Shown here: in pieces, positions 19,109-26,645 of the stretch
How the letters are laid out: each line of letters starts with the position of its first letter
Numbering within the stretch: position 1 is the stretch's first letter
Assembly: GCA_038061545.1 (NCBI GenBank)
Contig: JBBTZE010000087.1
Location: 1-31,701, forward strand
From: Patescibacteria group bacterium
GTDB taxonomy: Bacteria > Patescibacteriota > Microgenomatia > UBA8517
Length of the DNA: 31,701 nt
Direction of reading: 5' to 3'
Made by a program: the position numbers and the translations under genes
Notes under the pieces: generated by a model
The model's input: the letters and a program-made list of their open reading frames with translations, nothing else
Database searches by the model: none
Told to the model about the DNA's origin: nothing

Positions 19109-19119
19109 TTGGTATTGTC

Positions 19120-19150
19120 CCCACTTCGCCCAAGGCTTCGCGGGGCAGGC
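19120..19150 (+). repeat. REP-like hairpin family B unit (intergenic)
   Basis: CCCACTTCGCCCAAGGCTTCGCGGGGCAGGC shares the CGCC-(C)AAGGCT core and GGCA(A/G)G tail with the unit at 22508-22537. Confidence 0.55.
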
Positions 19151-19165
19151 ACTCCTTAGTGACTA

Positions 19166-20818: not shown

Positions 20819-20947
20819 CGCAAGTTACATTTACTTCTACGCCGAGTGCCCCGTCAAAATCGCTCTTTGAGCCGTGAACGAATAGTTCCCAAAAGGTGAA
20901 AGGTAAGATTGACTGGGGCTGGAGTCAGTATTGAGATTAAGATGTAA
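20789..20947 (+). mobile_element. Putative 129-bp insertion or scar in the rpsJ 3' end with a synonymously recoded duplicate tail
   Basis: 20789-20818 and 20918-20947 both encode AGVSIEIKM-stop in the same frame, at 20/30 nt identity. The spacer is structured. Confidence 0.6.
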
Positions 20948-21067
20948 TTATCCTATAACTCTTGACTTCTTCTTCTTCTTCTTCTGTTAGGATTCCCCCA
21001 GCTTGCACATTTTGGCTTAAAAAGACAAATTTTTCTATTCTAACGATGATGATGAAGAGGAGATAAA

Positions 21068-21406
21068 ATGAACCGTTTAATTCGTGTTGAAAGCCATCCG
21101 AACAGCCGTGTTCGTGATTTTCATATCAACCGCGTGGTTTCTCAGTCAGTAATTGAACATTTCATGCGCCCTTTGCGGGATAGCTCAGAGAGCTATCTTA
21201 CAAAAGTTGGTGATCCAGGCGCAGAAGTTGTCCGTTCACTTATGCGTCTTCCGGGCGTCACTGAGATTTTCATCAAACCCTATGAGATAGGTGTTCATAT
21301 CTCTGAGGTTCATGACTGGGATTCTCTGGAGCCGAGCGTACTTCGGGTACTTTGCACCAAAGTGTTCGGCACAGATCCCGACGACGTTCAGATCGAACAC
21401 AAGTAA
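21068..21406 (+). CDS. Stand-alone NifU/Nfu N-terminal-like domain protein
   Basis: ESHPN...LMRLPGVTEIFIKPYEIGV...DWDSLEPSV resembles the Nfu_N pattern. GAGGAG RBS upstream. Confidence 0.65.
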   Translation: MNRLIRVESHPNSRVRDFHINRVVSQSVIEHFMRPLRDSSESYLTKVGDPGAEVVRSLMRLPGVTEIFIKPYEIGVHISEVHDWDSLEPSVLRVLCTKVFGTDPDDVQIEHK

Positions 21407-21427
21407 AGAGCCTTTGCCAAAATGCGC

Positions 21428-21490
21428 AAGACTGGCCTAGCGCTAATGATAATAGAGGATTTCCTCTTTTTGAAATTAGTGCTAGGTCTT
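21428..21490 (+). terminator. Long hairpin after the Nfu_N-like gene
   Basis: CCTAGCGCTAAT pairs with ATTAGTGCTAGG around an inner AGAGG/CCTCT stem. T-rich tail. Confidence 0.5.
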
Positions 21491-21509
21491 TCTTGTTTTA
21501 TGAGGCTGA

Positions 21510-21538
21510 TTGACCTTGTTGCAATATTAAGATATAAT
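21510..21538 (+). promoter_or_regulatory. Sigma70 promoter of the rplC operon
   Basis: TTGACC, 17 bp, TATAAT. Confidence 0.85.
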
Positions 21539-21544
21539 GCGTCT

Positions 21545-21681
21545 ATGACATCCAATGTGGATGGCTGTCAGCGCGTAAGCGCTGTCATAACAAGAAGTGG
21601 ATAGACTAAAAACAACTACCACAATTAGTAGTCTTTGAAGGAATCTTCTTTTTGAAGCGCCTTTCAGAGGCGCTTTTTTTT
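21545..21681 (+). promoter_or_regulatory. Structured rplC leader ending in an intrinsic terminator (attenuator candidate)
   Basis: Stems CATCCA/TGGATG, CAGCGC-GTAA-GCGCTG, GACTA/TAGTC, then AAGCGCCT-TTCAG-AGGCGCTT plus a T run before rplC. Confidence 0.65.
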
Positions 21682-21688
21682 GTTTAAT

Positions 21689-21720
21689 GTCCCTCGACTC
21701 TTTTGAGATCGTTCGGGATC
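21689..21720 (+). repeat. Degenerate family A-like hairpin
   Basis: GTCCCTCGACTCTTTTGAGATCGTTCGGGATC; TCGAC core with a TCCC/GGGA closing stem. Confidence 0.4.
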
Positions 21721-21730
21721 CAGAACAAAT

Positions 21731-22573
21731 ATGAATTTAAATACAATACTCGGTTCAAAAAGTGGCATCAGCCAGACCTTCGTCAATGGTTTACGGATTC
21801 CGTCCACCAAAGTTGTGGCTGGTCCATGCGTGGTCACAGGAATTAAAAGTATGGATAAGGACGGTTACTGGGCAATTCAGTTAGGTTTCGGGAGTAGAAC
21901 TTCAAAAAATATTTCAAGAGCTGTAAAAGGTCATTTAAAACACTTTCTGGCAAAGCCAGATCCTGCTCTGTCTGGCACAGCCAGACCTAGCTCTGCAAGG
22001 CAGGACAAAAGCACTCAGCTTCAAAATTACCCCAAGCATATACGCGAAATTAGAGTCGATTCTGCGCCAGAGTTCAAAGTCGGAGACGTAATTACACTCT
22101 CCGATATTTTTTCTGTTGGAGATCTTATTTCAGTAACTGGGATCAGTAAAGGAAAAGGCCATGCCGGAGTTGTTAAAAGACATCACTTTAGGGGGGGACC
22201 AAAGACTCACGGACAATCAGATCGCCACAGAGCTCCAGGATCAATCGGACAAACAACAACTCCGGGACGCGTTTACAAAGGGAAAAGGATGGCAGGAAGA
22301 ATGGGTGGGGAAACCGTGACAATCAAAAATGTCCATGTAATTGGAATCGATAAAGAAAAAAACGAAATGTTAATTTCTTCACCAATTCCGGGAGCCCCAA
22401 ACGCAATTTTGACAATAATTAAGCTTGCCGCAGGGTCTTTGGCCGACCTTGAACACGAAGTTGAGGCAGTAGTAATTGAAGAGGCACCGGCAGAACCAGC
22501 CTCCGCTCCAGCCGACGCCAAGGCTATGGCTGGCAAGGAAGCTACGGCGAACCAAGGGGAAGTTAAAGAATAA
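21731..22573 (+). CDS. rplC: 50S ribosomal protein L3 with two hairpin-derived insertions
   Basis: GYWAIQLGFG, SKGKGHAGVVKRH, THGQSDRHRAPGSIG, KRMAGRMG. Confidence 0.97.
   Translation: MNLNTILGSKSGISQTFVNGLRIPSTKVVAGPCVVTGIKSMDKDGYWAIQLGFGSRTSKNISRAVKGHLKHFLAKPDPALSGTARPSSARQDKSTQLQNYPKHIREIRVDSAPEFKVGDVITLSDIFSVGDLISVTGISKGKGHAGVVKRHHFRGGPKTHGQSDRHRAPGSIGQTTTPGRVYKGKRMAGRMGGETVTIKNVHVIGIDKEKNEMLISSPIPGAPNAILTIIKLAAGSLADLEHEVEAVVIEEAPAEPASAPADAKAMAGKEATANQGEVKE
21955..22005 (+). repeat. In-frame tandem/hairpin insertion in rplC
   Basis: Two 25-bp units (17/25 identical) containing the hairpin GTCTGGC-ACA-GCCAGAC. Confidence 0.55.
22497..22556 (+). repeat. Nested family B hairpins in the rplC 3' extension
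   Basis: Outer GCCTCCGCT...GAAGCTACGGCG interrupted by the 30-bp inner CCAGCCGACGCCAAGGCTATGGCTGGCAAG. Confidence 0.65.
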
Positions 22574-23184: not shown

Positions 23185-23465
23185 AATTAATTCCAATTTA
23201 CACAGAAAAAAGCACAATCTTAGCAAAGCAGGGAAAATACACTTTCTCGGTGGATTTGACTGCAGGGAAAATTGCCATCAAAAAGGCAGTTTTGGATGTT
23301 TTTGGGGTACACGCAGTCGATGTTCGCACAATAAGGACTTATGTCGAGCACAAAAGAAACGCCAGAGGCACAAAAATGAAAGTAAGAGCTGTCAAAAAGG
23401 CAATTATTACAATAAAAGAAGGCGAGAAGATGGATTTATTTGAAGAAAGGAAGAAGTCCCGGTGA
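23181..23465 (+). CDS. rplW: 50S ribosomal protein L23
   Basis: PIYTEKS, KYTFSV, KKAIITIKEG, and operon position. Confidence 0.94.
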   Translation: MKLIPIYTEKSTILAKQGKYTFSVDLTAGKIAIKKAVLDVFGVHAVDVRTIRTYVEHKRNARGTKMKVRAVKKAIITIKEGEKMDLFEERKKSR

Positions 23466-23528
23466 GATAGCATCAGATGCATCTCACGGGATCCCGTTAG
23501 ATGCTCTGAAAGAGCTATCTAACTGGGA
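23456..23528. repeat. 73-bp double-hairpin element, copy 1
   Basis: 70/73 identical to 26573-26645. Supplies the rplW stop codon. Confidence 0.9.
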
Positions 23529-26333: not shown

Positions 26334-26587
26334 AAATATTTATCGGACGCGTCATTAGTACAAAACGGTTGAAAACCGCTACTGTCACAGTGGAAAATAT
26401 TGTTATTCATCCTTTATACAAGAAAAGATTCAGAAGACTAAGGAAATATTCAGTACACGACGATAAGGGGGTAAAAGTAGGGGACACGGTCAAATTCATA
26501 ACAACCAGGCCATATTCAAAAACAGTCAGATGGGCAATCACCGAGATTGTAGAGAACAAGAATAAAAAGAAAGTCCCAGTGAGATAG
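26330..26587 (+). CDS. rpsQ: 30S ribosomal protein S17
   Basis: GRVIS, HPLYKKR, VGDTV, RPYSKTVRW. Confidence 0.95.
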   Translation: MKIFIGRVISTKRLKTATVTVENIVIHPLYKKRFRRLRKYSVHDDKGVKVGDTVKFITTRPYSKTVRWAITEIVENKNKKKVPVR

Positions 26588-26645
26588 CATAAAATGCATC
26601 TCACGGGATCCCGTTAGATGCTCTGAAAGAGCTATCTAACTGGGA
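26573..26645. repeat. 73-bp double-hairpin element, copy 2
   Basis: 70/73 identical to 23456-23528. Supplies the rpsQ stop codon. Confidence 0.9.

Follow-up and report, generated by a model that had tools for sequence, protein, structure and literature searches.

Comparative evidence for a short hairpin repeat nested in frame within another copy of its own family in the ribosomal protein L3 gene of a Woesebacteria genome

Introduction

Bacterial genes can accommodate short repeated motifs within their coding sequence, as illustrated by the uptake sequences (USS/DUS), which are tolerated in frame at permissive positions and are often paired as hairpins. Longer repeats of this kind are the Rickettsia palindromic elements (RPEs), which lie mostly inside unrelated housekeeping open reading frames, in frame, where they add peptide at positions compatible with the function of the protein, several families of such elements coexisting (PMC10969869). 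The intragenic MITEs (ERIC, BOX, Correia and cyanobacterial elements) are small non-autonomous repeats that can also create in-frame fusions (PMC10969869). Bacteria of the Candidate Phyla Radiation (CPR) are considered streamlined organisms whose ribosomal proteins are shortened (PMC9297842). We report here on a member of this group in which the gene of ribosomal protein uL3 carries, within its final 25 codons, two short GC-rich hairpin units that by sequence comparison belong to one dispersed family, one lying in frame in the loop of the other.

Results

The rplC locus and its two nested units

The window, that is the whole stretch of 31,701 nucleotides analysed, is contig C87 of a 543-kb metagenome-assembled genome (105 contigs, 39% GC, about 86% completeness) from the uncultured lineage Candidatus Woesebacteria (Microgenomates, CPR). 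The features relevant to the L3 tail are the following.

21731 to 22573, forward strand: rplC, encoding ribosomal protein uL3 of 280 amino acids (ORF list; Pfam Ribosomal_L3, E 5e-15)
22440 to 22495, forward strand: proximal part of the tail (LEHEV..VVIEE..APAE), conserved across family and order and not element-derived
22496 to 22507, forward strand: 5' half of the outer unit, assigned to family A, codons 256-259 (PASA), 11/12 identical to the unsplit unit of L058 and G116
22508 to 22537, forward strand: inner unit, assigned to family A, 30 nt, codons 260-269 (PADAKAMAGK), lying within the outer unit's apical loop (R2 model, full length, 24.7 bits, E 0.0016)
22538 to 22549, forward strand: codons 270-273 (EATA), completing the outer unit on its 3' side and matching L058 and G116 at 12/12 bases

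The product carries the Pfam Ribosomal_L3 domain and its gene occupies the S10 operon slot between rpsJ and rplD, with a gap of 2 nt to the latter, as expected of uL3; orthologs were found in 41 of 41 relatives. The protein has in addition a C-terminal tail of about 45 residues and an internal insert. The original prediction held that the hairpin units build this tail, and that was only partly borne out: units of family A contribute 14-20 of the roughly 45 residues, while a tail is found throughout the family and order, as a conserved helix (LEHEVVAQVVEGE-like) whose C-terminal continuation, 0-45 residues long, is variable, acidic and rich in Ala, Pro and Lys. AlphaFold2 gives pLDDT values below 50 at residues 244-280 and 55-98, which are the two element-bearing segments, in a model that is poor overall (mean 57.7).

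Some other features of the window deserve mention. The spacing from rpsJ to rplC is about 0.9 kb (20819-21730) and contains an Nfu_N-like ORF at 21068-21406 (Pfam E 7e-7) as well as the strongest hairpin of the window, at 21431-21490 (z of -6.4 after GC correction). A hairpin element of about 55-70 nt is present twice (23461-23520 and 26581-26640) and ranks high among the window's folds after GC correction, being one of the strongest.

The 30-nt hairpin that had been predicted in the L3 tail was located at 22508-22537, in frame, and the proposal of an outer hairpin around it was upheld as well, since the 21 flanking bases quoted for it are identical (21/21) to L058:1901-1936 and to G116, in which they are uninterrupted. 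The inner unit folds as a two-tier hairpin, with a stem of 6-7 bp enclosing an inner stem of 2-3 bp; all its pairs are standard, one of them being a compensatory change relative to the canonical stem, and its reading frame is that of the copy found in def. In the allele of the window, other sequence (22550-22555) stands in place of the final 6 nt of the outer unit, which the sister allele P0001 retains (GK). Read directly, the junctions 22507/22508 and 22537/22538 show neither a target-site duplication nor a terminal repeat, and they cannot be shifted.

Taken by itself, the stretch would not attract attention. Folding gives z values of -1.3 (30 nt) and -1.8 (60 nt); the 60-nt segment, being the richest in GC, comes 12th of 6329 sliding windows in raw energy, and once GC is regressed out its rank is 233-290 of 6329, about the top 4%. 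None of its 12-mers recurs in the genome and its 8-mers occur at chance frequency, the inner unit was reached neither by blastn-short nor by a three-seed nhmmer profile of the element at 19120, and the window gave no hit when scanned with Rfam and for tRNA genes. A first reading based on these statistics (fold z, k-mers, blastn-short, nhmmer, sliding minimum free energy) and on the order-wide tail took the stretch for a chance hairpin in a low-complexity tail; it was overturned by matches of a covariance model, R1, in the L3 tails of relatives. It is thus the comparative data that confirm the nesting, the folding statistics alone being unremarkable.

L3 tails with zero, one or two units

The outer unit is found unsplit in the L3 tails of L058, G116, G082, G003 (L004), L014 and L086; R1, built from 12 copies, scores 20-22 bits on the tails of L058, G003 (L004), L014 and L086 and also matches the internal L3 loop of G029 (L020). 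In L058 the unit encodes PASAEATAGKP, and G116 has the same unit, preceded by the same EAPAE codons. At the protein level, the 10-residue unit occurs in about 10 of 120 Woesebacteria L3 sequences, most having none. Interruption of the unit by PADAKAMAGK is seen exclusively in the eight members of the cluster at ≥96% identity to which the window belongs, the inner unit being absent from every L3 outside this cluster, so that the two-unit tail is confined to a species-level cluster. When PADAKAMAGK is removed from the P0001 allele, the canonical 10-residue unit of P0008, P0047, P0062, P0085 and P0102 is restored exactly. In comparisons with relatives at 77-97%, made at the protein level only, the nearest other species (81-84% identical) have no tail unit and a relative at 77% has one degenerate unit at the same tail position; in one metagenome scan the closest relative was at ≤59%. 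Tails with zero, one and two units thus all exist and differ block-wise, which is the pattern that had been proposed as a check. On the L3 tree, no fewer than 9 changes are required to explain where the unit is present, shuffled labels requiring 11-12, and its presence is therefore very patchy.

The original prediction also supposed an element that is presently active, a claim that found no backing within the cluster: its 8 assemblies are alike in having both units, and no presence/absence polymorphism was found. The extreme C-terminus of the protein (window 22550-22570) occurs in this cluster as two alleles, NQGEVKE (n=4) and GKEEAPKE (n=4), upstream of which the sequences are identical, both units included.

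A dispersed hairpin family

Family A consists of dispersed, GC-rich, imperfect-hairpin repeats of about 30-37 nt. A canonical copy in the window is the following:

19117 to 19153, forward strand: canonical member of family A in the fusA-tuf interval, outside any long open frame (R1, 53.3 bits)

This copy corresponds to the intergenic relative that had been proposed at 19120-19150, which accordingly turns out to be a genuine member of the family; it has relatives of its own in seven other genomes. The genome-wide count that had been suggested as a check gives 6-8 family-A copies for the genome of the window, and across the 61 relatives sampled 23 contain the family, at 1-12 copies per genome (E ≤ 0.001), while 71 L3 loci from CPR lineages at greater distance contain no R1 match. 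The copies stand in unrelated genomic contexts. In the genome of the window their hosts are dnaG (C4), def (C88), dnaX (C13), a GTPase gene (C44) and a glycosyltransferase gene (C19), and the hosts confirmed by Pfam are dnaG, def, dnaX, a GTPase, a GT2 and L20. Further copies of the tail-type variant are located in SecA, adjacent to a tRNA gene, and on the 5' side of another gene. Peptide segments are in this way added by the family to many proteins, among them those of dnaG, def, dnaX and the GTPase gene. Family-A units are also seen in the uL23 tail of G034 (L024:433-468, reverse strand, 37 bits) and, as a weak match of 15 bits, in the bL20 tail in the genome of the window (C23:2276-2311). 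Two inverted copies 28 nt apart form a REPIN-like doublet directly after a tRNA gene (L160, G003:C18:8542-8640).

About 41 of 51 copies (some 80%) are in sense orientation inside long open frames, with all three frames being used; of the others, three or four run antisense and about six fall within short frames. No sense frame of the family-A copies contains a stop codon. Use of the three frames together with the existence of intergenic copies rules out a conserved peptide motif. At the level of the nucleic acid the stem is maintained: in an alignment that was fitted to the model, and which therefore favours structure, 98.7% of the cells are paired and double changes are observed in 4 of 4 outer-stem pairs, a result reached by 0 of 500 shuffles, and pairing falls to 30-60% when the partner column is slid. 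The sense bias could reflect selection at the RNA level, antisense peptides that are ill tolerated, or an orientation-specific single-strand mechanism coupled to replication. A literature search, limited in coverage and hence leaving novelty unproven, returned no description of such elements in CPR bacteria.

Assignment of the inner unit to family A

R1 already returned the inner unit as its best non-self match in the window, at 8.5 bits and an E-value of 2.6. A wider model, R2, was built from 33 copies of about 20 genomes, with the inner unit left out and the L3-tail units of four relatives included. Searched over both strands of the window with filters off, it matches 22506-22541 at 24.7 bits with an E-value of 0.0016, E-values coming from a shortened calibration and GC-rich Ala-coding sequence being liable to inflate scores; the next match stands at 9.1 bits, and the inner unit is the only significant new match in the window. 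The match is full-length, with every stem pair standard. The three-seed nhmmer profile and the 12-sequence R1 were too narrow for this unit, which the 33-sequence R2 recognises. A check that uses no model comes from comparing the unsplit L058 unit with all 1,080,670 30-mers of the genome: the joint best, at 22/30, are the inner unit and the def copy, followed by one position at 20/30 and seven at 19/30, two known copies among them. The inner unit is itself 23/30 identical to its own host unit. We consider its membership of family A to be established.

Further loop inserts and a second family

The loops of resident family-A copies hold other inserts in at least three further cases. These inserts are 38 nt long in L009, where the insert is in a coding frame, 38 nt in G019:C13, where it is flanked by a 5-nt direct repeat, and a 20-nt mini-hairpin in frame in G048:C2; all are hairpins unrelated to the unit that they interrupt. 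The loops of about 80 copies amount to a few hundred bases of target in some 60 Mb searched, and three or four inserts are far above random expectation, bearing in mind that only inserts in the loop leave a unit recognisable, although any insert in the units would still be rare by chance.

A different hairpin repeat, family B, is represented in the internal part of L3:

21946 to 22006, forward strand: two in-frame family-B units in the internal loop of L3, 25 nt (21946-21970) plus a 36-nt variant (21971-22006)

The additional 30 nt of the variant (21971-22000) encode SGTARPSSAR, and the loop peptide reads LAKPDPAL, SGTARPSSAR, QDK. An exact copy of the 25 nt lies at C93:1493-1517 and 14 copies were found in 10 relatives, with compensatory changes in the stem. 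L3 has no family-B unit in P0003 and P0005, one in P0002 and P0006 and two in the cluster of the window; the alignment fits a tandem as well as a nested arrangement, and the pair can be read as either. The same internal loop carries a family-A unit in G029 (L020) and a related mini-hairpin in G022 (L009). A comparable situation is met in DnaX, where the site after the 'INC' motif and before the Cys-rich module is occupied by family A in the genome of the window (C13:1081-1116, reverse strand) and by family B in G106 (L040, C52:2961-2985), which suggests a small set of permissive or preferred insertion positions.

RAYT-like genes

Two RAYT-like Y1 genes are present in the genome of the window (C96:2041-2727 and C67:3354-4040, both on the reverse strand), and each is bracketed by its own type of REP, with about 10 loci for the C96 gene and about 7 for the C67 gene. 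REP2 copies themselves occur in frame, one inside fmt (C88:2601) and one inside the C67 RAYT-like gene. Twelve more RAYT-like genes from four relatives are flanked likewise by other types of repeat. Family A flanks none of these 14 genes, the only R1 match in these loci lying about 0.9 kb from the gene, and a transposase flanked by the family, which had been proposed as something to look for, was therefore not encountered. We rejected a RAYT link for family A on the ground that the Y1 genes of C96, of C67 and of the relatives are flanked by other hairpins; a Y1 enzyme mobilising family A in trans is a candidate, and nothing more.

Discussion

Insertion, local duplication or selection

The question arises as to how a unit of family A came to lie within another. 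We favour as the likely explanation that family-A copies are dispersed by insertion and that a second copy was placed in the loop of the unit already resident in L3. Family A would be a DNA-level, REP/MITE-like element; an older copy, encoding PASAEATAGK and common to other Woesebacteria L3 genes, would, in this species' lineage, have received in its apical loop another copy, with 73-77% identity to it, adding exactly 30 nt or 10 codons. The survivors of such events would be stop-free inserts of 3n nucleotides in disordered tails or surface loops of proteins, and their outcome would be the addition of short Ala/Pro/Gly/Lys-rich peptides to essential proteins. Beyond what is observed directly, namely the family membership of both units, their nested geometry, the block-wise presence and absence, the mostly intragenic sense location and the covariation of the stem, copies have probably spread by insertion into single-stranded (extruded) hairpin loops, and selection would have filtered frame and position.

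The serious rival, which we nevertheless regard as unlikely, is a local event without any element from elsewhere: the inner unit would derive from the resident unit by slippage, by template switching at the hairpin or by gene conversion, within a tail of low complexity that evolves fast, followed by divergence. It is true that the inner unit has its nearest match in its own host (23/30; the def copy reaches 20/30), that L3 tails often change in length, the two alleles of the cluster differing only in their last 7-8 residues, and that MAFFT prefers to align the single unit of relatives with the inner unit, which would make the outer sequences two partial copies around one diverged unit. A local copy, however, sits poorly with the order of the half-units, which is a a' b' b and not tandem, and with the lack of microhomology at the junctions. 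Moreover, the outer halves match the unit of other genera (11/12 and 12/12) while the inner unit has diverged at 7-8 positions out of 30; a recent copy made locally should show the opposite. In the remaining cases of nesting, the hairpin within the loop is an unrelated one.

A rather improbable alternative to both insertion and local duplication is that the units do not move at all and are selected RNA hairpins or peptide motifs, serving for instance in mRNA stability, processing, protein binding or as linkers, that arose or were kept independently at each site. The strong bias for the sense strand (about 41:4), the stem covariation, and synonymous positions that are more conserved within the units than in the adjacent conserved helix all speak in its favour. 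Yet the occurrence in all three frames together with intergenic and tRNA-flanking copies rules out the peptide version, the independent origin of 30-37 nt about 80% identical in unrelated genes is implausible, and the distribution is patchy across genera; a function of the RNA, for its part, is compatible with mobility and is no alternative to it. As for chance, by which the GC-rich Ala/Pro/Gly codons of a low-complexity tail would merely happen to be self-complementary, the modest fold (z of -1.3 to -1.8; rank 233-290 of 6329), the want of a k-mer or nhmmer match and the R1 E-value of 2.6 are what it would predict, but the R2 E-value of 0.0016, a place among the top 2 of 1.08 M positions and the restoration of the canonical unit when the inner one is excised from the P0001 allele leave it a very slight probability.

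Wider meaning of the insertion model

Returning to insertion as the preferred explanation, it is tempting to extend it into a more general proposal, which we put forward tentatively and hold to be doubtful in this form: Woesebacteria, and perhaps Microgenomates more widely, would harbour elements of 30-37 nt that prefer hairpin loops, those of their own kind included, settle mainly within essential genes, in sense orientation, and are mobilised without a flanking RAYT, either in trans or by a new mechanism. Whatever their origin, short hairpin repeats lie in this lineage inside uL3 (at two sites), uL23, bL20, DnaG, DnaX, Def, Fmt, SecA and a ribosome-binding GTPase. If they are mobile, they would constitute a second, independent RPE-like example, one-tenth as long and from a lineage far removed from Rickettsia, and a tractable case of sequence gain in the disordered tails and loops of essential proteins; they would also be a source of error for annotation, alignment and ribosomal-protein phylogeny in CPR genomes, and the repeated insertion of loop into loop would point to a single-strand, hairpin-directed mechanism. 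Should the general proposal prove true, ribosomal and replication proteins of supposedly minimal genomes would be receiving a steady supply of new peptide segments.

Comparison with described repeats

Family A shares traits with several described systems. Uptake sequences number about a thousand or more per genome, in contrast to the 1-12 copies of family A, which is absent from most of the relatives sampled. With the intragenic MITEs family A has in common that these are small non-autonomous repeats able to give in-frame fusions. MITEs are, however, bounded by terminal inverted repeats, duplicate their target site and usually exceed 100 bp, whereas the junctions of the inner unit display neither repeat nor duplication; one other nested family-A case (L156) does have a 5-nt direct repeat. 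The likeness to REPs and REPINs goes further, since family A is a short, imperfect, GC-rich hairpin of about 35 nt and thus within the 20-40 nt of a REP, an inverted doublet stands next to a tRNA gene (G003:C18), and RAYT-like genes exist in the genome of the window and in relatives. Y1 enzymes are moreover expected to leave no target-site duplication, as is the case at the junctions of the inner unit. REPs, however, are extragenic by definition and usually present in hundreds, while family A is about 80% intragenic and of low copy number, and it flanks no cognate RAYT among the 14 examined. By analogy of behaviour, the closest functional match to family A is the Rickettsia palindromic elements, with which it shares the condition of an in-frame palindromic repeat in unrelated ORFs. 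It is set apart from them by length and host, RPEs being elements of about 100-150 bp (35-50 amino acids) in Rickettsia and family A one of 30-37 nt (10-12 amino acids) in CPR bacteria, and also by its 1-12 copies per genome, its use of three sense frames and the repeated insertion of units into the loops of one another.
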